Source of the DNA: an uncultured Candidatus Saccharibacteria bacterium
GTDB taxonomy: Bacteria; Patescibacteriota; Minisyncoccia; Phycocordibacterales; UBA9973
DNA length: 42,200 nucleotides
NCBI GenBank assembly: GCA_964474435.1
Contig: CAYYSI010000001.1
Coordinates: 1 to 42,200, forward strand
Reading direction: 5' to 3'
Below the pieces are notes generated by a model, which was not told the origin of the DNA, did no database searches, and was given only the letters and a program-made list of their open reading frames with translations. Below, piece by piece: positions 38-20,053 of the stretch. The translations under genes and the position numbers were made by a program. How positions within the stretch are numbered: position 1 is the first letter of the stretch; each line of letters opens with the position of its first letter.

Positions 38-667
38 ATGAAAAAGATAGGTGAGGGGTACTATTACAATGTATACGATCTTGCTAATAATCGAGTCTTG
101 AAAAGACAGAAGAGTAGATTTCGTATTTTTCTCTTTATTTTGTTTTCCAGGAAATTCAAGCCAGACTTTTTTCGAGAATATAAAAATGTCTTGCGTGTTA
201 TTCCTACACTTCAGTTTTTGTATAAAAGAATAGTGGAGTCTGGTTTTAATCTTGATCTCTTGGGAAGGCCTACGTTTGGCAAAGGTATTGAGTATGAACA
301 AGATAAGGTGATAACTATACGAAAATTTATTAAAAGCTATTCAGATAGAGAAACAGAAAATCTAATCGAGAGTTTTATAGAACTCATGCATGAGTTGTGG
401 AAGTATGGTATGTCAGATGAGGTGTACAACTTTACAATTAATAATGCGGTAGATGATAATGGAAGAGTGGTTCTTATCGATTTTAATGAGGTTACATTTG
501 ATAAAGCAAAAGTTGAAAGTGATATCAAAAATGAGATATGGCTAAAACGATGGTCATATACTCATTTAAAACCTGTTGCGCAAAGATATTATAAGAAAAG
601 AATGAGAGAGGAATTAAACACTATCAAGCTAAATCTTTTATGGGGCAAGAGTATTAGAAAAGTTTAG
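38..667 (+). CDS. Hypothetical protein, probable atypical protein-kinase-like fold
   Basis: 209-aa AT-rich ORF; N-terminal IGEGYYYNVY (Gly-loop-like), VLK lysine, and NN...VVLIDFNE resembling the catalytic-loop/DFG region of PK-like enzymes. Confidence 0.5.
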   Translation: MKKIGEGYYYNVYDLANNRVLKRQKSRFRIFLFILFSRKFKPDFFREYKNVLRVIPTLQFLYKRIVESGFNLDLLGRPTFGKGIEYEQDKVITIRKFIKSYSDRETENLIESFIELMHELWKYGMSDEVYNFTINNAVDDNGRVVLIDFNEVTFDKAKVESDIKNEIWLKRWSYTHLKPVAQRYYKKRMREELNTIKLNLLWGKSIRKV

Positions 668-1452
668 TGCGAATTATCTATGATCACTGTAATCGGGGAT
701 GAGGTCTTGGTATTGCCGGCCGCATCAGTTGCCTTTGCGGTCACGCTGTAGGTGCCTGATGGGGTTTGTATCGTATCCCAGTAGAGTGTGTTGGGATTTA
801 CATTTCCACTGACGATGTTTAGGAGTGTGTTGTCACGATAATACTCAACTTTTTGAATAGTACTGTTTCCGGAGAATGCCCAGACTTTCAATGTGGCTCC
901 AAGGGAGCTTTGAGTATAGGTGATGGGTCCTGTTGTTTGGAGGTCGATATTGAAGTTCATGAGTGAGATCATATTTGGCACTGCGCTTGGATCACGCGTT
1001 GCATTGCCGCATGTTTTGGGTCCTGTAGTTGCAAGCAGTCCGTCGGTACCTCTGGACGCACCTTCGGCATCGACACACCAGTATTTGGTAGGAGCGACTT
1101 TGAGTGGAAAAATCGCAACAAAGCCGTTGGTATCTGCGATGTATTGGTATGCAGTGCCATTGTCGGCCGTTGTGTATCCAAGGCTGAGCGCAAGTTTGTC
1201 GAGCTGTGTTTGCGCGGCACTGCCGACTGTAAAGGTGTTTGCATACTGTCCAGCATAGTCTTGGGCGGCAACGGTGCGGACTGAGGAGAGCACCTTTTTG
1301 GTTGAGGCATCAACTGCTTTTTTGCGAGCATCGCCAGTGAATGCCATGACGATAAGTACGAGAACAGTGAGGATGGCTATCGTCACCAAAACTTCCAGGA
1401 GACTAAAGCCGCTAGATCGATACCGATATATCTTTGGATGCTGGGCATTCAT
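664..1452 (-). CDS. Type IV pilin-like protein with C-terminal bacterial Ig-like domain
   Basis: Class III signal G|FSLLEVLVTIAIL; pilin body with YWCVDAEG motif like the other pilins; C-terminal KVEYYRDNTLL...WDT...GTYSVTAKATDAAGNTKTS is Ig-like. Confidence 0.85.
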   Translation of the reverse strand: MNAQHPKIYRYRSSGFSLLEVLVTIAILTVLVLIVMAFTGDARKKAVDASTKKVLSSVRTVAAQDYAGQYANTFTVGSAAQTQLDKLALSLGYTTADNGTAYQYIADTNGFVAIFPLKVAPTKYWCVDAEGASRGTDGLLATTGPKTCGNATRDPSAVPNMISLMNFNIDLQTTGPITYTQSSLGATLKVWAFSGNSTIQKVEYYRDNTLLNIVSGNVNPNTLYWDTIQTPSGTYSVTAKATDAAGNTKTSSPITVIIDNSH

Positions 1453-1880: not shown

Positions 1881-1924
1881 AAATAAAAAACACTCACTCA
1901 GAAAAAACTGAGTGTTTTTTATTT
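1881..1924. terminator. Bidirectional intrinsic terminator between convergent genes
   Basis: Perfect 16-bp inverted repeat aaataaaaaacactca / tgagtgttttttattt with A/T tracts on both sides; overlaps comF stop. Confidence 0.8.
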
Positions 1925-2566
1925 GTTGTACCCATGTGCAAGGGCAATACAGATGATCTTGCGAGCGCCAGTAACTCTAAGGGCGCGTCTCGCTTCATCA
2001 AATGTCGCGCCCGTCGTACTAACATCATCGACGACGACGTAGATTTGGGTGGGATCAAGAGTTGAACCACACTCCATGGTATGTGCAACGTTTTTCAGGC
2101 GTGCACTTCGAGAGAGTCGCGCTTGGGGAAGTGTGAACACAGTTTTGCGAAGGAGTGGACGCACACTGCTACCCGCTATCGCGTGCGTCCACCAAGTCGC
2201 AAGCAACTCACTTTGATTAAATCCTCTACTACGCGCCTTGCTGATGTGTCCCGGTATGGGGACAAAGACCAGAGGTTGCGCGCCGATGCCTTGGAGCAGA
2301 TCAGAAAGATAGTCTTCTATATAGGGTATTGCTGCGTCAGCAAGTGCGCGAGCGCGCTCGCTCCTGCGGTGGTACTTGAGGTCGCGCACGGTCCATTTGA
2401 CGAGCGGGTTGCCATAGTCAAAGACGGCAAAGGTTTTGGCGGGCAAGTCGGGCGCAAGAGGGATAGTATTGATACATGTCGTACAGAGCGCAGACCCAGG
2501 CTTCCCACAGCCATGACAGTGCTCGGGAAAGAAAATCTGTAGGAATGATCGCACCAGGCTACCCAT
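1919..2566 (-). CDS. comF: ComF family competence protein (Zn ribbon + phosphoribosyltransferase domain)
   Basis: CHGC..CTTC N-terminus, RGFNQS motif, PRPP-binding VVVDDVSTTGAT. Confidence 0.9.
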   Translation of the reverse strand: MGSLVRSFLQIFFPEHCHGCGKPGSALCTTCINTIPLAPDLPAKTFAVFDYGNPLVKWTVRDLKYHRRSERARALADAAIPYIEDYLSDLLQGIGAQPLVFVPIPGHISKARSRGFNQSELLATWWTHAIAGSSVRPLLRKTVFTLPQARLSRSARLKNVAHTMECGSTLDPTQIYVVVDDVSTTGATFDEARRALRVTGARKIICIALAHGYNK

Positions 2567-2601
2567 AGGAAATATCTAAATATGCTTTATACTACTACTA
2601 T

Positions 2602-3735
2602 ATGGACAGTATACTCGGGGGATTGAAAAGCGCCTTGTCGGGAATCTTTGGCAAGAAACAGGATGATACGGCAGTAGGTATCGATATTGGTACTTCTGCG
2701 ATCAAAGTTGTCGAGCTCAAAAAAGAAAATGGCCGAGCAGTGCTCTCGACCTATGGTGCGCTTTCGATTGGGCAATACAAAGAAGGTGGATTCCTAGGCG
2801 AAGTGACATCCCTTGATGCGCAAACACTTTCCAAGGCGCTCGTCGACGTGCTCAAAGAAACAAACATTGCGAGCAAAAATGTCGTCGTCGGCATCCCTTC
2901 AGTCTCATGTATTATTTTTATTCTCCAACTCCCGGCCGCGATTGATGAAGCAACACTGCCAACCGTTATCCCAAACGAAGCCAAGAAATTTATCCCGGTA
3001 CCGATCACTGATGTATCACTCGACTGGTATGTGATCCCGCGTCGCGAAGATTCAGGTGTTGCATCACGCGTTATCGCAGAAAGTGGCGGCGAAGCGCAAA
3101 TGTCAGTGCTGGTTGTTGCAACACTGAACGAAACATTGGTGAAGTACACGGAAGTCTTGCAGAAATCAGGATTGCCGATGGACAACCTCGAGATTGAAAT
3201 CTTTAGCCACATCAGATCAGTCCTCACACGTGAACTCTTCCCAGTCCTCATCATCGACATTGGTGCATCCAAGACCAAGCTCACGATTGTGGAGCACGGC
3301 ATTGTCGAAACATTCCGACTGGTCAACCGCGGGAGCCAAGATATGACACACGCGATCTCTCGCAGTCTCGAGATCCCGTTTGATAAAGCTGAGACTATCA
3401 AGAAAGAATACGGCCTCGTCCCAAGTTCTGAGCATCCAACAGTGCCCGACATGATCAAGACACACCTCGTCGACATTTTCCAAGAAGCAAATACAAATAT
3501 CCTTGGGTACGAAAAGCGCTACAACAAAAATATCGGCAAGATCATCTTTACGGGTGGTGGCGCAATGACCAAGGGACTCCTCGAATACGCAAGTCAGAGT
3601 TTTGCAGCAGAGCTCATCATTGCGGATCCATTTTCAAAGGTCGAGTCCCCAGTATTCCTCGCAGGTGTGCTCAAAACAACGGGACCTGAATTCTCGATCG
3701 CGCTTGGGCTTGCACTGAAGCAGTTTCAGCAATAA
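2602..3735 (+). CDS. pilM: Type IV pilus assembly protein PilM (actin-like ATPase fold)
   Basis: VGIDIGTSAIKVVEL, IIDIGASKT, IIFTGGGA, IALGLAL motifs. Confidence 0.93.
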   Translation: MDSILGGLKSALSGIFGKKQDDTAVGIDIGTSAIKVVELKKENGRAVLSTYGALSIGQYKEGGFLGEVTSLDAQTLSKALVDVLKETNIASKNVVVGIPSVSCIIFILQLPAAIDEATLPTVIPNEAKKFIPVPITDVSLDWYVIPRREDSGVASRVIAESGGEAQMSVLVVATLNETLVKYTEVLQKSGLPMDNLEIEIFSHIRSVLTRELFPVLIIDIGASKTKLTIVEHGIVETFRLVNRGSQDMTHAISRSLEIPFDKAETIKKEYGLVPSSEHPTVPDMIKTHLVDIFQEANTNILGYEKRYNKNIGKIIFTGGGAMTKGLLEYASQSFAAELIIADPFSKVESPVFLAGVLKTTGPEFSIALGLALKQFQQ

Positions 3736-3741
3736 GTAAAA

Positions 3742-6711
3742 ATGAGAAAGAAACTTTTATTTACAGTACTTATAATGGTCGGTCTCTTGTTTCTTAAAAC
3801 ATCTACGACTGCTGCTACAACAAATATTTCAGTCGGTGCTTCTGCCGACAAGTCTGCAGTTGTTGGTATTAAACTGTATGTTCCTACTGCGGGATCAGGA
3901 GTTGCGGTTATAGATACAACAACTGATACAGTGGTTACTACTATAGACACGGGCTCTTCGTCTACATTTGCATTTGCATTCGGTACAAAAGTGTACATTG
4001 GCCATAGTACCGGCAGCATATCGGTCATTAATACAGTTGATGACACTGTCGCCAATACCATCTCCTTAAGTAGTAATGGGGGATATATGACTATTGTGGG
4101 TCAGAAACTCTATGCAATTGATGGTAATGCAATAGATGTTATAGATACAACAACCGATACTATCACCACGACAATTCCTGTCAGCACAGGACCATTTTTC
4201 TTTGTCACAATAGGTACTAACGTATATGTTCTTCATTCAGCAAGTAACGATGTCGTGGTCATTGATACTTTGACGGATACTGTCTCTGCGACTATTGATG
4301 TGGGTCATACGGCGTTTTATGGAGTCGCGGTTGGTACGAAGCTCTATAGTATCAGTCGAACACTTGTCACAGCTATTGATACACTGACCAACGTGGTAGG
4401 TGCAGATGTCAGCATTACTTCGGGGTATCAGGCTTCAGTCATTGGTACTAACATATATGTAAACAATGAGTCAGCTCCGGGAACAGTGTCTGTTATTGAT
4501 TCAATCAATCACACCCTTACCACTACAGTATCGGGTGGAGAACGGTTTCCGTATTCTCAGGTTATTGGGACAAAGGTATATGTCAGCAGTACTCGATCAG
4601 ATGAAGTATATGTCATAGATAGTCTCACCAATGCAGTAGTTGATGTTATTGCTGTCGATCCGGGTCCATACTTTTCTACAGCCGTAGGGAAAAAAATATA
4701 TACAAGCAATCATACTGGTGCCAGTGTTAGTGCTATTGATACTACTACTATTCCTTCGCAGCTCCCAAACCTAGTCTCTTTTTCTACTTCATCTCCCGAT
4801 GGTACATATCGCGTGGGGGATAGTATAGAGATAGCGGCAACATTTGGTGAAACGATTGAGCCAGGATCAACAATGACGATTCTACTAAATTCGGGCGCAT
4901 CGGTTGTCTTGAATCAAACCTCTGGATCCGAACTTTCTGGTACATATAGCATCGGCTCTGGTGACTCTTCTCCCGATCTTGCAGTTCGTTCTGTTACTAC
5001 TGCTTCAGTTTCTGATGGGACATACACTCGCACTTCATACGACCTGCCCTCGTCCCAAGGTTCGCTTTTTGCCGAAAATTCCTTTATCACCCGCAGTCTT
5101 GGAGATATAAAAAATATAGTTATTGATACCCGCCCTATTACTATTACGACAGGTTCTCACCCCTACCAAGTTTCCCAGAATATTGGTGGGTATACCTATG
5201 TTGCAAATCAAGGCTCCAATGATGTATCAGTTATTCGACTCTCAGATAATACCGTTGTGGCAACAATCCCTGTTGGACAAGAACCGTACGGTCTTGCATA
5301 TACCAGTGGCAAGCTCTATGTTGCCAACACTCTTTCTAATGATGTCTCAGTCATCAACACTGCAACCAATACAGTGATTCAAACAATAGCCGTTGAAGTG
5401 AAGCCATATTATGTTGCAACGATTGGGACAAATGTATACGTCACCAATGGTGCGTCTAATTCCGTATCGGTTATTGATAGTACAACCGATACGGTCACGA
5501 CGACTATTCCTGTAGGTGCATACCCCCGAGGTATCAAAGCGCACGGCACTGATCTCTATGTTGCAAACTATGGTGACCCAAACTACCCAGGAGGTAATTC
5601 TGTTTCAGTTATTAACTCACTCACGAATACTATCTCTACTACCATTATTCTTCCTCCAGGAAGTGAAGGTCCGCGCGGTGTAGCCGTAGCGGGATCCAAA
5701 GTATATGTTTCAAATTTTAGATCACACAATGTTTCGGTCATCAATACTGCAACGAATGCCGTGGTCGCAACTATTCCCGTGGGAATGGGGCCTCGAGGAA
5801 TAGCAATTGTTGGGTCAAATATCTATGTCGAAAACTTTGATGACGGTACAATTTCAGTCATTAATGCAAATACAAATATGGTGAGCGATACGATTGATGT
5901 AGGACATTCACCATCTGGTATGGGTGTCATTGGTACCGATATATATGTCAGCGCCTTTCAGGATGATGAAGTGCGAATACTGGACACCCTCACAGGTGAG
6001 CTGAAACAAATTCCAGCAACAGCACCTGATGCACCTACTGCACTTAGTGCAACTCCTGGAGAAGCACAAGTTTCTCTCACCTGGACTGCGCCGGCAAATA
6101 ACGGCGCTACGATCACTGATTATATTGTTGAGTATAAACTTTCATCAGACTCAACGTGGACAGTGTTTCCTGACGGCACTTCTGCCGCTGCGACTGTAGT
6201 GGTATTAGGTCTCACTAATGATCTCTCATATGATTTCCGTGTTTCGGCAGTCAATTCTGCAGGTACGGGAGCATCATCAATGACCGCAACCGCAACTCCG
6301 GTTGCTAGCGCAATCCCTTCTCCTTCTGATGAAGATCATTCACCTTCAGGAAGTATTCCCCCCACCGACTGTCTCCCCGGCATGCGCTACTCTCCATCTA
6401 CTGGACAACTGTGTCCCATCATTTCTCCCACAAGTGGTCCCACTGCTCCACTTATACCCACAAAACCTTCATCCCCACCAACCTTCACCCGAACCCTCAA
6501 ACTCGGGTCTTCTGGTTCTGATGTCAAAACACTCCAACAATACCTAAACTCACACAACGTTATTGTTTCAACTGTTGGTGCAGGATCTCCAGGAAAGGAA
6601 ACAACACTCTTTGGTACCAAGACCAAGCTTGCTGTTATCAAACTCCAACTTGCGAACAAATTGAAAGGGGATGGGGTTGTGGGGCCGATGACGAGAGGGG
6701 TGATGAAATAA
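3742..6711 (+). CDS. Large secreted surface protein: two YVTN-type beta-propellers, Ig-like spacer, FN3 and C-terminal peptidoglycan-binding domain
   Basis: Signal peptide; about 8+7 repeats of GxKxYVxN...VSVIDTxTxTVxxTIxVG; FN3 (PDAPTALSA...VSLTWTAP...Y.FRVSAVNSAGTG); PG-binding LKLGSSGSDVKTLQQYLN...DGVVGPMTR. Confidence 0.88.
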   Translation: MRKKLLFTVLIMVGLLFLKTSTTAATTNISVGASADKSAVVGIKLYVPTAGSGVAVIDTTTDTVVTTIDTGSSSTFAFAFGTKVYIGHSTGSISVINTVDDTVANTISLSSNGGYMTIVGQKLYAIDGNAIDVIDTTTDTITTTIPVSTGPFFFVTIGTNVYVLHSASNDVVVIDTLTDTVSATIDVGHTAFYGVAVGTKLYSISRTLVTAIDTLTNVVGADVSITSGYQASVIGTNIYVNNESAPGTVSVIDSINHTLTTTVSGGERFPYSQVIGTKVYVSSTRSDEVYVIDSLTNAVVDVIAVDPGPYFSTAVGKKIYTSNHTGASVSAIDTTTIPSQLPNLVSFSTSSPDGTYRVGDSIEIAATFGETIEPGSTMTILLNSGASVVLNQTSGSELSGTYSIGSGDSSPDLAVRSVTTASVSDGTYTRTSYDLPSSQGSLFAENSFITRSLGDIKNIVIDTRPITITTGSHPYQVSQNIGGYTYVANQGSNDVSVIRLSDNTVVATIPVGQEPYGLAYTSGKLYVANTLSNDVSVINTATNTVIQTIAVEVKPYYVATIGTNVYVTNGASNSVSVIDSTTDTVTTTIPVGAYPRGIKAHGTDLYVANYGDPNYPGGNSVSVINSLTNTISTTIILPPGSEGPRGVAVAGSKVYVSNFRSHNVSVINTATNAVVATIPVGMGPRGIAIVGSNIYVENFDDGTISVINANTNMVSDTIDVGHSPSGMGVIGTDIYVSAFQDDEVRILDTLTGELKQIPATAPDAPTALSATPGEAQVSLTWTAPANNGATITDYIVEYKLSSDSTWTVFPDGTSAAATVVVLGLTNDLSYDFRVSAVNSAGTGASSMTATATPVASAIPSPSDEDHSPSGSIPPTDCLPGMRYSPSTGQLCPIISPTSGPTAPLIPTKPSSPPTFTRTLKLGSSGSDVKTLQQYLNSHNVIVSTVGAGSPGKETTLFGTKTKLAVIKLQLANKLKGDGVVGPMTRGVMK

Positions 6712-6793
6712 ATTGAAAGTGGATTAATCCACTCTTTTCATTATTTTTCCTTGCACATATATAGAGAGTGCATGTATACTTTGTAGTAATTCC

Positions 6794-7438
6794 ATGGAAC
6801 CGCCAATCACTACATCTTTTATTCCAAAGCGCCCCGTCAGCAGTGATCCTATCGCACCAAAAGCACAGAGTCATGCACTCGGTCTCATCTCTCTCCTCGC
6901 AGTCGTGATTGTCATTGCAACTGCAGTATCGTTTGGTGGTGTGTATCTCTACGAGAAACAACTCGTGTCACAAAAAGCAAAATCAGAAGTACTCATTAAT
7001 GATGCAAAGAAGGGGATCGGCACAGAATTCCTCAGTGATATGAAGCGACTCGATGCACGTATCGAAGGTGTGAAGTCATTGCTCAAGAGTCACATCGTTG
7101 TTTCCCCAATCTTTGACGCACTCGAGGAAACAACATTGCGCACGGTGCAATACAAGAGCTTTACCTATTCATTTGTTTCTGATCCTGCAACCAAGGCAAC
7201 TGTCGTACAGGTCACACTGCTCGGTAGTGCCAAAAATTATTCAACCATCGCATTGCAGTCCGATGCCTTTACCAAAAGCTCATTGATCAGAAATCCAGTC
7301 TTTTCAAACCTCACCGTTGATGACAAGACCAATGTTGTTAACTTCAAACTTATGTTTACGGTGGCACCTGCTTCACTGTCGTATGATGCATTTATTAGCT
7401 CACGTATGCCTGCGTCTGCTCAGCAGCAATCATTATGA
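6794..7438 (+). CDS. pilN: Type IV pilus assembly protein PilN-like
   Basis: N-terminal FIPK motif (PilM-binding INLLP analogue), one TM helix, coiled coil, ferredoxin-like C-terminus; position after pilM. Confidence 0.75.
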   Translation: MEPPITTSFIPKRPVSSDPIAPKAQSHALGLISLLAVVIVIATAVSFGGVYLYEKQLVSQKAKSEVLINDAKKGIGTEFLSDMKRLDARIEGVKSLLKSHIVVSPIFDALEETTLRTVQYKSFTYSFVSDPATKATVVQVTLLGSAKNYSTIALQSDAFTKSSLIRNPVFSNLTVDDKTNVVNFKLMFTVAPASLSYDAFISSRMPASAQQQSL

Positions 7439-8007
7439 AGACATTTTTTTCACTACTACTTATAGCTACATCCCTCATTGTCTTTGTGACGGTTATCAGA
7501 CCGCGCTACCAAAACCTGCAAGTGACGCGCAAGGCAGTTGCCGTATCAAATGCAAATCTTGAAACCGCTGCAAAGCTTGCCGAATCTCGTGAGTCATTGA
7601 TCGCGACATACAACACTATTTCCAAAACTGATCTCGATAATGTCAGAACACTCTTGCCCGACAGTGTCGATAACATTCGCCTCATCATCCAGATCAACTC
7701 GCTCGCAACAAAAAATGGCCTTTCATTGCTCCGAAATGTGGATTACCAAACAGAGTCTCCTGATGGTTCACAGCCAACTCAGGCTCCCGAAGCAGCAAAC
7801 CGCCCATATGGTGAGTTTACGATTTCATTCCAGACGACAGGGCAGTATTCCAACTTCCTCGCCTTTGTCGCAGACCTCGAAAAGAATTTGCGCCTCGTGG
7901 ACGTGACCAAAGTCGAGTTTACGACCAACGAAGCTCCGACTGCACAAACACCGGCAAGCAGCCTCAGTTACAAGGTCAGCCTCAAGACGTATTGGCTTAA
8001 AAAATAA
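7435..8007 (+). CDS. pilO: Type IV pilus assembly protein PilO
   Basis: TM anchor, coiled coil, LLP motif, GQYSNFLAFVADLEKNLRLVDV; ATGA overlap with pilN. Confidence 0.85.
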   Translation: MKTFFSLLLIATSLIVFVTVIRPRYQNLQVTRKAVAVSNANLETAAKLAESRESLIATYNTISKTDLDNVRTLLPDSVDNIRLIIQINSLATKNGLSLLRNVDYQTESPDGSQPTQAPEAANRPYGEFTISFQTTGQYSNFLAFVADLEKNLRLVDVTKVEFTTNEAPTAQTPASSLSYKVSLKTYWLKK

Positions 8008-8009
8008 CT

Positions 8010-8675
8010 ATGAATAAGAAACTTAAAACAATTTTGATACTCGTAGTCGTCGTTGTGGTGATCGGCATTGCGGCAAGCTATTTCTTGCAGAACAAAAGTG
8101 CACCAAGTGCTCCGGTAACAAGCGACAACCCACTGAGCGCATCTTCTCGTGCAGCTGGTGTTGCATCGTCCACTGCTCCGCTTGCTCCAGCAACAGAGTT
8201 CTCAGCGTTGCTCTCGACTATTAAAAGCATTTCTATCGATACGTCACTGTTTACCAATGCATCGTATTTGAGCTTGCGAGATTTCCCAATCACACTCGGT
8301 ACCGAAATCATTGGTCGCCCAAACCCATTTGCACCGATCGGCTATGATGCAGCAAGTAGTACTACGACAACTGATACTCCTATCCAGTTTGAAACACTTC
8401 AGCCAGGCAAGGTCACGAGTACGACTGCAGAGTTTGGCGGACAAGGACTCCTGAGTAATACTGCACAATCAAGTGTCGTGTTTGAATACGGAACGAGTGA
8501 TCTCTTTGGTAGTGCAACACCCCCGGTATCTCTCGGTAAAAATGGCACTGCACTCTTTACTGCAAGTGGTCTCACACCTGCAACGATGTACTATGTTCGT
8601 GCCGTATTGGTGCAAGGGTCGAACACCACCGTGGGTAACACCATGACCTTTACGACGACTGCAAAAACACGATAA
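8010..8675 (+). CDS. Membrane-anchored protein in PilP position with C-terminal FN3-like domain
   Basis: TM helix, Ser/Ala/Pro linker, GRPNPFAP (PilP-like RxPF motif), then FN3-like FEYG...SGLTPATMYYVRAV. Confidence 0.7.
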   Translation: MNKKLKTILILVVVVVVIGIAASYFLQNKSAPSAPVTSDNPLSASSRAAGVASSTAPLAPATEFSALLSTIKSISIDTSLFTNASYLSLRDFPITLGTEIIGRPNPFAPIGYDAASSTTTTDTPIQFETLQPGKVTSTTAEFGGQGLLSNTAQSSVVFEYGTSDLFGSATPPVSLGKNGTALFTASGLTPATMYYVRAVLVQGSNTTVGNTMTFTTTAKTR

Positions 8676-14861: not shown

Positions 14862-15650
14862 ATGCTTTTATTGCCGCTTATTATTTTCGCATTCGGCTTA
14901 CTCATCGGATCTTTTTTAAACGTCGTTATCTTGCGTATCAACACGGGGCGATCCATTGTCATCGGGCGTTCCAAGTGCGCGCGCTGCAATCGTGAGCTCG
15001 CATGGTATGAGCTCGTCCCAGTCTTTTCATTCCTCGGTCTCCGCGGCAAATGTCGCACGTGCAAACAACCGATCTCATTTCAATACGCACTCGTTGAGCT
15101 CGCAACAGCAATCATCTTTGTCGTTGCATATACACAGATCGTCGTAGCGGGAGGTTTCACTGCCACAGCGATCATTTCATACATATTTACCCTGATCATC
15201 GCGAGTTTGTTGATGGTGATCACTATCTATGACCTCCGCCACAAGATCATTCCCGACATGGTTGTCTATCCATTTATTGTGCTCGCTATCGGATCAATCG
15301 TATGGCGTGCAGTGACAGTGCCATATTTCCATATATGGGGCGCATTGCTCGGGGGAACACTTGTGGCATTACCATTTTTCTTGCTCTGGTATTTCTCAAA
15401 AGGGCGACTCATGGGATTTGGCGATGTGAAGCTCATGCTTGGTATTGGGTGGCTCGTCGGACTCACTGCTGGCTTTGCTGTGCTCGTGCTCGGATTTTGG
15501 ATCGGAGGTATCGTCGGACTTTTCTTGCTTGCGCTCACACGACGCTATGGCATGAAAAGTCAGATACCGTTTGGACCCTTTTTAGTAGTTGCACTTGGCA
15601 TAGTCGCACTCTGGGGTGTTACAATTAGTTCACTCTTTCCACTATGGTAA
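14862..15650 (+). CDS. pilD: Prepilin peptidase PilD (A24)
   Basis: GSFLNVVILR, two CxxC (CARC, CRTC), IYDLRHKIIPD and GFGDVKL aspartate motifs, IPFGPFL. Confidence 0.95.
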   Translation: MLLLPLIIFAFGLLIGSFLNVVILRINTGRSIVIGRSKCARCNRELAWYELVPVFSFLGLRGKCRTCKQPISFQYALVELATAIIFVVAYTQIVVAGGFTATAIISYIFTLIIASLLMVITIYDLRHKIIPDMVVYPFIVLAIGSIVWRAVTVPYFHIWGALLGGTLVALPFFLLWYFSKGRLMGFGDVKLMLGIGWLVGLTAGFAVLVLGFWIGGIVGLFLLALTRRYGMKSQIPFGPFLVVALGIVALWGVTISSLFPLW

Positions 15651-16333
15651 AACACTCATTACAACAAGGTGTCACGATTATCGAAATGCTCGTCGTCGTT
15701 GCAATCATTGCAATGGTTTCAGGTGTGATTATTTTTAACTACTCGGACTTTAGTACCAACGTTTCTATTCGTAACCTTACCCAAGAAGTCGCGCTCAGTA
15801 TCCGCAAGGCGCAGACCTATGCGACCAGTGTGCGTCCAATCGAAGGACTCGTAGGAGTCAGTAGTCGTGAGTTCGCAGGGTATGGAGCATCATTTAGTGT
15901 TGCGCGTGATGTTGGGAGCGATCAGTATCTTGCGGATGCAAAGAAATTTATCTTGTTTGCAGATATACCGCTCGTATTTGGTGAAAGTCCCAATGGGGCA
16001 TATGATCAAGAGATCAACGGTGTGTGTGATGCGCCTTTGGCATCTATGGAGTGTATCGAAACATTTGGTATAAATACTGCTGATCGGATCGTTGGTATTT
16101 GTAGTGACGATGTTACACCGTATGACTCTGGATCAATGATTGACTGCTCAGACAAAGGGAGTGTTGATATTACATTCCTTCGCCCAAATCCTGATGCGCA
16201 TATCAGATATCACAATGAAGCCACTAATGAGACTATCGAAAACGCATCATATGCAAAGATTGTCTTTGAGTCTGCAAAAGGGCTTCGTCGATCAGTCACT
16301 GTCTGGAATACGGGGCAGATTAGTGTGCGATAA
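15644..16333 (+). CDS. Minor pilin (FimT/FimU/GspH-like)
   Basis: G|VTIIEMLVVV; C-terminal SVTVWNTGQISVR typical of the GspH-like class. Confidence 0.8.
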   Translation: MVKHSLQQGVTIIEMLVVVAIIAMVSGVIIFNYSDFSTNVSIRNLTQEVALSIRKAQTYATSVRPIEGLVGVSSREFAGYGASFSVARDVGSDQYLADAKKFILFADIPLVFGESPNGAYDQEINGVCDAPLASMECIETFGINTADRIVGICSDDVTPYDSGSMIDCSDKGSVDITFLRPNPDAHIRYHNEATNETIENASYAKIVFESAKGLRRSVTVWNTGQISVR

Positions 16334-16339
16334 TTATTT

Positions 16340-16960
16340 ATGATGAAATTTTCTCAACCACAATCACATACACAGGCAGGGTTCACACTTGTGGAGCTCA
16401 TGGTGTCGCTCTCACTTTTTATTATCGTCGTTCTCGCGCTCGTCGGCTCGCTGTACAATGTTAACGACGCATCACGCAAAGTCCAGGCAATGCGTACCGT
16501 CATGGACAACCTTAACTTTGCTGTTGAATCCATGAGTCGCACGATTCGTACTGGTGAAGACATCACGTGTAGTGAGTCTGGTATCGGCATATGTCCTATT
16601 GCTAGTATTACAAATGGGTCAAATCCGTACCTCTCAGTACGCAGTACGCTTGGAGAGAATGCGCGCATCGAATATCGATGGGTGCATGATGACCCTAGTC
16701 AGCCTGGCAGAGTCGAAAAGAAGCGCACTGAACTCAATGATGATGGTACACCAGTACTTGGTGCAAGTCCTACATGGGTCTCAATCACGTCTCCAGAGAT
16801 CAATGTTGAAAAGTTTAGTTTCTATGTCGCTGGTGTTGGCGACAATGACGGTGAACAACCAAATGTTATTATAAACATGCAAGGAGTGGCGAGTGCAGGT
16901 CGAGACAACGTCGCACCGTTTTCAATACAAACATTCCTCTCGCAGAGAGCACCTGAGTGA
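16340..16960 (+). CDS. Minor pilin (PilW/GspJ-like)
   Basis: G|FTLVELMVS; ESMSRTIRTG helix. Confidence 0.8.
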   Translation: MMKFSQPQSHTQAGFTLVELMVSLSLFIIVVLALVGSLYNVNDASRKVQAMRTVMDNLNFAVESMSRTIRTGEDITCSESGIGICPIASITNGSNPYLSVRSTLGENARIEYRWVHDDPSQPGRVEKKRTELNDDGTPVLGASPTWVSITSPEINVEKFSFYVAGVGDNDGEQPNVIINMQGVASAGRDNVAPFSIQTFLSQRAPE

Positions 16961-17546
16961 TCTATATGATGAAAAAATACACCCAACAATCAGGCTTCAC
17001 CCTCATCGAGACATTGATCGCGATTCTCATTCTTTCGCTCGCAATCGGCGCGTTGCTCACACTCACTGCAGGAGGATTCTTTGGTATTCGCTATGCGAAA
17101 AATGATATCGTCGCAAGCAACCTACTGCAGGAGTCGCTCGAGTACGTGCGCAATAGTCGCGACAATGCTGCGCAATCAGATAGTGGGACGAGCTGGGGCA
17201 TCTGGCAGTCTCGGTATGCAGCATGTGCCTCTGACGATGGTTGTATGATCAACCCGTATGCAGATACTGATGGAGGCAAAGTACAACTATGTCCTGGCAA
17301 GTGTACTCAGTTGAAATATTTTCCTGACGCAGGCTTTTATGGGTACAATGACACTGATATATTTAACACGACAATGGATCAAGGGTTTGCCACATCGTTT
17401 GTTCGTACGGTGCGCTTTACCGATATTGCTCCGACAGGTATCAATGTCGATCCACAACTCCTTGTCACCGCGACAATGGAATGGATGAATGGGACAAACA
17501 AGAAATCAACGACGCAGTCGATAGTACTCACGAGATGGAATTTACA

Positions 17547-17550
<4 letters not shown>
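16957..17550 (+). CDS. Minor pilin (PilV/GspI-like)
   Basis: G|FTLIETLIAI; ASNLLQESLEYVRN; alternative ATG at 16966. Confidence 0.8.

Positions 17551-20053
<2,503 letters not shown>

Follow-up and report, generated by a model that had tools for sequence, protein, structure and literature searches.

What is a gene for a predicted surface protein with two beta-propellers doing between pilM and pilN, two pilus genes that are usually adjacent, and does it belong to the pilus at all? The gene, here called X, lies in a stretch of 42,200 nucleotides (the window) that forms the start of contig C1 in the genome of an uncultured Candidatus Saccharibacteria bacterium (G000; 640 kb, four contigs, 99.8% complete). 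It occupies positions 3742-6711 of the forward strand and is an intact open reading frame (ORF) for 989 amino acids (aa) without internal stops. A gap of 6 nt separates it from the stop codon of pilM, and 82 nt lie between its end and a PilN-like gene (6794-7438). A preliminary description of the locus had placed a 989-aa gene between pilM and pilN, 6 nt past the pilM stop, which the ORF coordinates bear out, and had proposed that its product substitutes for PilY1 as a host adhesin or serves as an exit guide for the pilus. We come to a different answer and regard X, with a probability of about 0.6, as an accessory cell-surface protein that belongs to a Patescibacteria family of "YVTN propeller / Ig / PG_binding_1" proteins and stands outside the pilus machine. 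Position, architecture, distribution, and promoter conservation are seen in the data; export, wall anchoring, co-transcription, and ligand binding, like every statement on function here, are inferred from comparative genomics, sequence, and predicted structure. The parts of the gene are the following, all on the forward strand:

3742..6711, gene X, secreted peptidoglycan-anchored double YVTN propeller protein as predicted from profiles and AlphaFold2
3742..3816, Sec-type signal peptide, aa 1-25 (MRKK and a hydrophobic helix; helix aa 3-16 in the model, at low pLDDT)
3817..4740, N-terminal 8-blade YVTN propeller, aa 26-333 (32 strands in the AlphaFold2 model)
4765..5121, Ig-like (SwmB-type) domain and connector, aa 342-460 (AlphaFold2 model; many invariant columns)
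5140..5985, 7-blade YVTN propeller, aa 467-748 (474-748 in the whole-protein model), the highly conserved core
6028..6294, FN3 domain, aa 763-851 (PF00041 at aa 763-849, E 1.7e-10; aa 766-851 in the model)
6370..6414, Cys loop CLPGMRYSPSTGQLC, aa 877-891, inside the Pro/Ser linker
6511..6705, PG_binding_1 domain, aa 924-988 (PF01471, E 4.7e-10, 39.9 bits against a cut-off of 23)

The architecture that had been proposed earlier (signal peptide, about eight and about seven repeats around an Ig spacer, FN3, a Pro/Ser linker with a mini-domain, and a PG-binding domain) agrees with the profile matches and with the structural model. The AlphaFold2 model of the whole protein was built on 50 homologues and has a predicted local distance difference test score (pLDDT) of 87.9, and a separate model of the core reaches 93.8. 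YVTN repeats are found by TIGR02276 in eight stretches (E 1.6e-84, 277.7 bits against a cut-off of 27.85). In the model, the Ig-like sandwich covers aa 344-424 with short strands continuing to about aa 460, the Pro/Ser linker of about 70 aa behind the FN3 domain is disordered, and the PG_binding_1 domain is made of three helices (926-937, 959-971, and 982-988). The signal peptide contains neither a lipobox cysteine nor a pilin motif, as judged by reading the sequence and by the Pfam profile N_methyl. The earlier claim of a secreted surface protein with a wall anchor is thus supported, at the level of the sequence, by the Sec-type leader and the PG_binding_1 domain. In the mechanism that we propose, the N-terminal signal peptide would direct X to export via Sec, and the C-terminal PG_binding_1 domain, which we infer to be a non-covalent peptidoglycan anchor, would tether the protein to the bacterium's own peptidoglycan. 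The Pro/Ser linker with its Cys loop and the FN3 domain would carry X through the wall, so that the two propellers, the conserved Ig and 7-blade core and the variable 8-blade head, would be located outside the cell, where they are predicted to bind ligands. The anchor domain is not particular to X because PG_binding_1 is found in at least four to five secreted proteins of the same genome. The Cys loop follows the motif C-x2-G-x2-[FY]-S-x2-[ST]-G-x2-C and is probably a disulfide loop. It precedes PG_binding_1 in 11 of the 121 proteins compared, X and its own paralogue included, and also in a protein of another species (G059) that is described below. The motif is present as well in a small 183-aa ORF elsewhere in the genome of X (C2:6073-6624, reverse strand).

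A search of 5.8 billion proteins retrieved YVTN proteins by the thousand. Those that match X best over the full length have 45-56% identity to it, are labelled "YVTN family beta-propeller" or "SwmB domain-containing", and come from Patescibacteria (Paceibacterota, Falkowbacteria, and Saccharibacteria). The conserved core of the family begins at the Ig-like domain. Across 45 aligned homologues, whose named sources include Saccharibacteria and Paceibacterota, the Ig and 7-blade core is 51-71% identical to that of X, its invariant residues outside the repeats include RGIKAHGTDLYVANYGDPNY and ENFDDGT, and blades 4-6 contain conserved P-R-G loops. The N-terminal 8-blade propeller is the variable part of the family and is only weakly conserved in the homologue alignment. 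Such a combination of a conserved core and a variable head suggests that the core has a conserved partner and that the specificity of the head varies. The Patescibacteria YVTN/SwmB proteins with a PG_binding_1 domain (P0004, P0002, P0005, and the paralogue) have the same architecture as X, are 45-56% identical to it over most of their length and 60-71% in the core, and have the signal peptide, the Cys-loop linker, and the PG_binding_1 tail in common with it. X differs from the other copies examined in its location directly after pilM and in the missing promoter of its own, and the FN3 domain is present in some members only. A literature search on YVTN proteins in Saccharibacteria found none.

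The family has no particular connection to pili. Within the genus, the Ig and propeller core is encoded in about seven of 51 species genomes, at six sites: between pilM and pilN (G000), between map and rplT (the paralogue in G000, and G015), between rplE and rpsH and between rpsG and fusA (G062), beside gyrB (G042 and G057), and at one more site in G056. In metagenomes and other Patescibacteria, it is found between rplE and rpsH (P0002), ftsW and murG, recJ and rnhA, and mnmA and alaS, and next to lepA. No enrichment of pilus genes was seen near the homologues; only three of 86 loci are within 10 kb of a pilus gene at all, and in two of these three cases the reason is the rearrangement that joins map to pilN. 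The homologues thus occupy many loci unrelated to pili, which is the scattering that the preliminary description had named as speaking against its own proposal. Several members are wedged into core operons (L055:7930-11448, L148:3684-7906, L041:4093-7098, and L042:1275-4859, at rplE|rpsH, rpsL-rpsG|fusA, and ftsW|murG). Because most of these copies have their own -10 box and terminator, they are probably self-contained cassettes nested in housekeeping operons.

The interpretation of X as a PilY1 substitute is not supported, given that X has neither a PF05567 domain nor a pilin leader, its junction is not conserved, and its homologues are located away from pili. At E <= 0.1, the PilY1 profile (PF05567) finds nothing in the whole genome, which is 99.8% complete, and the secretin profile (PF00263) has no match there either, in agreement with the earlier statement that the locus lacks PilY1 and PilQ. 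The RCC1 repeat profile also has no match in the genome. All ten genome matches of PF07963 (N_methyl) are in genes other than X. In addition, PilY1 is absent from the top 50 Foldseek matches, irrespective of whether the whole protein or the core was searched. PilY1 of Pseudomonas and Myxococcus and PilX2 of Nanosynbacter lyticus TM7x resemble X in being beta-propeller proteins that are encoded near pilus genes and possibly act in adhesion (PMC11623550). However, X has no PF05567 domain, no pilin-like N-terminus, and no RCC1 repeats, it is predicted to be anchored in the wall and not borne by the pilus, and it is not conserved alongside the pilus genes. In Nanosynbacter lyticus, the pilin-fused PilX1 and PilX2 are experimentally supported pilus adhesins, and host binding is mediated by PilX2, a 7-blade propeller adhesin, and lectin-like domains (PMC11623550; 10.64898/2026.10.06.756255). 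Transposon sequencing (Tn-seq) in Southlakia identified type IV pili and several adhesins as essential; propellers and PG-binding proteins are unmentioned in that paper (PMC10633639).

The comparison of pilM-pilN junctions across relatives, which the preliminary description had suggested, was made for the 51 species genomes of the genus, of which 47 are readable and four are unresolved at contig ends. X is present at the junction in its own genome only. In 35 genomes pilM is directly followed by pilN with a gap of less than 100 nt, and in three the gap measures 0.28-0.5 kb and contains no gene. Other inserts are found in three genomes, namely a gene in opposite orientation for a membrane protein of 394 aa (G009), genes for an EamA half-transporter and a GNAT acetyltransferase (G020), and an opposite-strand ORF of 268 aa (G051). 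In one genome (G059), the gene between pilM and pilN encodes another kind of wall-anchored surface protein. In the remaining four, the locus is broken at the junction, with map joined to pilN in G060, G062, and G063, and the rplT-truB side joined in G010; pilM is followed by tpiA-pgk in G060 and G062. In G042, whose PilM is the most similar (88.6% identity), pilM and pilN are direct neighbours, and the same was seen in each of six genomes that represent other families of the order. Within the genus, the pilM|pilN junction is a hot spot for insertions and a recurrent rearrangement breakpoint. With X at one of 47 junctions and its family in about seven of 51 genomes, the conserved pilus does not depend on X, and the roles of PilY1 substitute and exit guide are not supported.

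The cargo in G059 deserves attention. The gene of at least about 1300 aa starts 21 nt after pilM, ends about 70-90 nt before pilN, and has its own TATAAT box. It was assembled in two pieces (L163:2-3190 on the reverse strand and L138:3-929) on two contigs that overlap within an FN3 repeat. The encoded protein has a signal peptide, two LamG-like domains, Big_5, Big_7, and Big_13 Ig domains, and FN3, and terminates in a Ser/Thr/Pro linker, a Cys loop (CRSGDVFSSTTGARC), and a PG_binding_1 domain. Large wall-anchored surface proteins with different heads are thus located at two of the 47 readable junctions. Because surface proteins dominate the accessory pool, the G059 gene has its own TATAAT box, and the two anchors are just 39-42% identical, we treat X and the G059 cargo as two presumably independent insertions into a permissive site. 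The term "swappable adhesin" in the preliminary description is appropriate insofar as different species carry different cargo at this site, but the part that makes it an adhesin of the pilus is unsupported.

Why the site is permissive becomes apparent from the organisation of the locus, which reads in the window:

664-1452, reverse strand, pilin-like gene with Ig domains (262 aa; N_methyl motif, Big_7/Big_13), upstream of comF
1919-2566, reverse strand, comF
2588..2593, forward strand, -10 box TATACT, probable promoter of the pilM-X transcript (read from the sequence; 8 nt before the pilM ATG)
2602..3735, forward strand, pilM (PF11104 PilM_2, E 9.2e-39)
3742..6711, forward strand, gene X
6716..6750, forward strand, weak hairpin AGTGGA-TTAA-TCCACT with a T-rich tail, 3' of the X stop (-8.7 kcal/mol, z -2.1)
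6751..6780, forward strand, pilN promoter TTGCAC, 18 nt, TATACT (48-region alignment and promoter scan)
6794..7438, forward strand, PilN-like gene (by position; 50-72% identity to the gene after pilM in relatives)
7435..8007, forward strand, pilO (PF04350, E 1.8e-9)
8010-8675, 221-aa gene between pilO and pilB without family match
thereafter, in this order, pilB, a receiver domain, pilT, pilC, three pilins, pilD, three minor pilins, and ligA
15644-17550, minor pilins
18053-20053, ligA

An element consisting of TTGCAC or TTGCGT, a spacer of 18-19 nt, and TATACT ends about 10 nt before the pilN ATG in the 48 upstream regions aligned (the comparison included window positions 6751-6793 and the loci L008-L036 and L127-L151 in 48 relatives). 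This promoter-like element is kept in essentially all members of the genus, even if map or an insert is located upstream. A conserved promoter before pilN implies that the pilM|pilN junction is the boundary of a transcription unit, and pilM and pilN-pilO-pilB would be separate or internally promoted units despite their usual adjacency. The junction thus tolerates insertions because it separates transcription units. The earlier phrase "inside the pilMNO operon" is correct in that X is located between pilM and pilN, but it is overstated given this boundary. The insertion is flanked exactly by the pilM stop on its left and by the ancestral spacer motif TAATCCACT on its right. This motif comprises the ancestral pilM stop codon and spacer, and it now provides the right arm of the hairpin after the X stop. 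X would accordingly be a recent, lineage-specific insertion downstream of the pilM stop and upstream of the promoter that is conserved before pilN. The sequence TAATCCAC at the right edge of every insertion was also considered as a genome-wide uptake or repetitive extragenic palindromic (REP)-like element, which was rejected because it occurs 12 times where about 23 copies would be expected. It is nothing more than the ancestral stop codon of pilM together with the spacer.

Neither the 6-nt gap nor the end of pilM contains a -10 box for X upon inspection of the sequence. The other members of the propeller family have their own TATACT or TATAAT box 6-10 nt before the ATG and their own GC-rich terminator, and they often sit behind the terminator of the upstream gene. 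Because X lacks what the other members have, it is most likely translated from a bicistronic pilM-X transcript. X would be expressed as the second cistron behind pilM, and pilN and the following genes would keep their own promoter. The supposed co-expression with the pilus machine is therefore probable for pilM (6-nt gap, no -10 box of its own), and this is where the sequence agrees with the earlier idea. Across the genome, -10-like hexamers (TANANT) peak 6 nt before the ATG (50 of 403 long ORFs; 108 within 6-10 nt), and Shine-Dalgarno sequences are not enriched before start codons, which suggests mostly leaderless or near-leaderless mRNAs in this organism.

The GC content of X at third codon positions (GC3) of 0.333 corresponds to the 9th percentile of 439 long ORFs of the genome, compared to 0.529 for pilM, 0.543 for pilB, 0.547 for pilT, and 0.546 for pilC. 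The more A/T-ending codon style that had been noticed before is confirmed by these values, and the low GC3 would fit a foreign or accessory origin. The genome encodes a paralogue of 1165 aa between map and rplT (C2:209189-212686). About 4.5 kb downstream of the paralogue there is a second pilus set (pilB2, pilC2, and three pilins) behind a histidine kinase (C2:217256-221832). In the maximum-likelihood tree of the core, X is the sister of P0002, the copy between rplE and rpsH, with an SH-aLRT support of 96, and the paralogue forms a clade with G015. However, a tract of 335 nt (6359..6693, forward strand) is 92.8% identical at the DNA level to C2:212334-212668 in the paralogue (blastn, ungapped alignment) and contains exact runs of 86 and 52 nt, whereas identity elsewhere in the gene does not exceed 66.5%. 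X as a recent duplicate of the paralogue is rejected by the core tree, and only these last 335 nt are nearly identical. We read the tract as the probable result of a gene conversion of the linker and anchor module, by which the anchor module of X would have been homogenised with that of the paralogue.

The preliminary description had comF and ligA as bounds of the locus, and both are found there. The PilN-like gene has a weak match to Pfam PilN (E 0.088). Relatives have the 221-aa gene between pilO and pilB as well (56% identity in G062), and its product may be a lineage-specific fourth protein of the alignment complex. As for adhesins of the pilin-fused type of PilX1 and PilX2, the window has candidates of its own in the Ig-domain pilin at 664-1452 and the minor pilins at 15644-17550. 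As an adhesin borne by the pilus, the Ig-domain pilin is more plausible than X.

Several observations weigh against our preferred reading. Co-transcription of pilM and X, if real, provides co-regulation with the pilus that might be functional rather than incidental. The occurrence of another large PG_binding_1 protein at the same site in a second species could reflect selection for such cargo. The strong conservation of the Ig and 7-blade core (51-71%) points to a specific conserved partner. In addition, the junction between X and pilN comes shortly after the exact repeat of 86 nt that X and the paralogue have in common, at a distance of 190 nt. It is conceivable that in some species the pilM|pilN site is an expression slot for interchangeable, wall-anchored host-binding proteins that are co-regulated via the pilM promoter. 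Pilus retraction would draw the episymbiont to its host, and wall-anchored propellers would lock the contact and help to set the host range. The location of X 6 nt after pilM without a promoter of its own is in accordance with such a slot, as is the LamG/Ig/FN3 protein of G059 with the same Cys loop and PG_binding_1 tail between pilM and pilN. The involvement of the PilX2 propeller and lectin-like domains in host binding by Nanosynbacter lyticus (PMC11623550; 10.64898/2026.10.06.756255) and the essential type IV pili and adhesins of Southlakia (PMC10633639) would agree with it, too. However, such cargo is present at just two of the 47 readable junctions, and the others contain EamA and GNAT genes or opposite-strand membrane proteins. 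The G059 gene has its own TATAAT box, members of the family usually form autonomous units at places that have nothing to do with pili, and the known pilus adhesins of Saccharibacteria are pilin-fused, which X is not. We consider the slot doubtful, and rather doubtful its extended version, in which large peptidoglycan-anchored proteins with interchangeable heads (a double propeller in G000, LamG/Ig/FN3 in G059) under the pilM promoter are second-stage adhesins that set host specificity in concert with pilus retraction, and the conserved core, mobile among core operons and among Patescibacteria lineages, recognises a common component of bacterial envelopes.

The structural relatives of X lead to two further explanations. 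The Foldseek search with the whole protein was dominated by generic double-propeller proteins and was rerun with the core alone. The best solved match of the core is 1L0Q, a surface-layer protein of Methanosarcina mazei (Foldseek 2.2e-21, 41% identity, root-mean-square deviation 2.6; phmmer 5.9e-45), which has a homologous 7-blade YVTN propeller and is extracellular like X. It differs from X in being archaeal, in pairing the propeller with PKD domains instead of Ig and FN3 domains, and in lacking a PG_binding_1 anchor. The Leptospira surface antigen Lp49 (3BWS; Foldseek 7.5e-20 over 455 columns) shares the succession of an Ig-like domain and a 7-blade propeller with the X core, but is just 16% identical to X and is a lipoprotein of a diderm bacterium without wall anchor. 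Further matches are the beta subunit of hydrazine synthase and 3DSM, which was deposited as "surface layer protein". The matches to 1L0Q and 3DSM together with the strong conservation of the core would be expected for a structural, S-layer-like protein, whose propellers tile or organise the outer wall surface and bind no foreign ligand. We regard this as quite unlikely, given that a family present in about seven of 51 genomes of the genus is no general envelope component and that low GC3 and an accessory distribution are atypical of an abundant structural protein. Alternatively, X could capture a nutrient or DNA to feed an auxotrophic, naturally competent episymbiont, similar to BtuG of Bacteroides and YncE of Escherichia coli, which are non-cytoplasmic 7-blade propellers that capture B12 and single-stranded DNA, respectively. 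The core aligns to BtuG1, BtuG2, and BT2095 with TM-scores of 0.52-0.56 (14-20% identity) and to YncE, with and without DNA, with TM-scores of 0.58-0.60 (about 17-20% identity). There are also sub-threshold matches to Pfam DUF5074 and NCBIfam YncE, conserved P-R-G loops in blades 4-6, and a flanking comF gene. Nevertheless, any 7-blade propeller would give comparable TM-scores, identities to BtuG/YncE of 17-20% are low, and X scores 66.4 bits against the cut-off of 400 bits of the YncE equivalog NF052280. The anchoring is different as well because BtuG has a lipoprotein signal and X has no lipobox. A capture function is therefore very unlikely in our view. Finally, the right junction might be an assembly chimera formed via the 86-nt repeat, in which case X would follow pilM but not precede pilN. 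The exact runs of 86 and 52 nt within a tract of 93% identity to the paralogue and the rearrangements at this junction in several relatives could be taken as signs of such an artefact. However, the copies differ by about 10% over a further 190 nt past the repeat and then have unique flanks, the ancestral pilM-pilN spacer including TAATCCACT follows the X stop, and the reciprocal arrangement is present in no relative. The left junction is unique sequence; an exact search of metagenome contigs gave no match to the X junction, and neither did an exact-protein look-up. A chimera is highly improbable, and the reading of X as an accessory, wall-anchored surface protein outside the pilus machine is the one that we prefer.

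Few molecules are known by which episymbiotic Saccharibacteria choose their hosts, and those known are pilin-fused adhesins. The propeller gene next to pilM is, in our reading, no hidden component of the pilus. It belongs to an uncharacterised but widespread family of predicted wall-anchored surface proteins whose genes move from one core operon to another, which cautions against over-reading the gene neighbourhood in compact genomes. The pilM|pilN boundary, which contains a conserved internal promoter, stands out as a hot spot for genome plasticity. If the site were after all a slot for adhesins, this would add a second, pilus-coordinated layer of adhesins. The conserved Ig and propeller core would be a reasonable target for ligand discovery.

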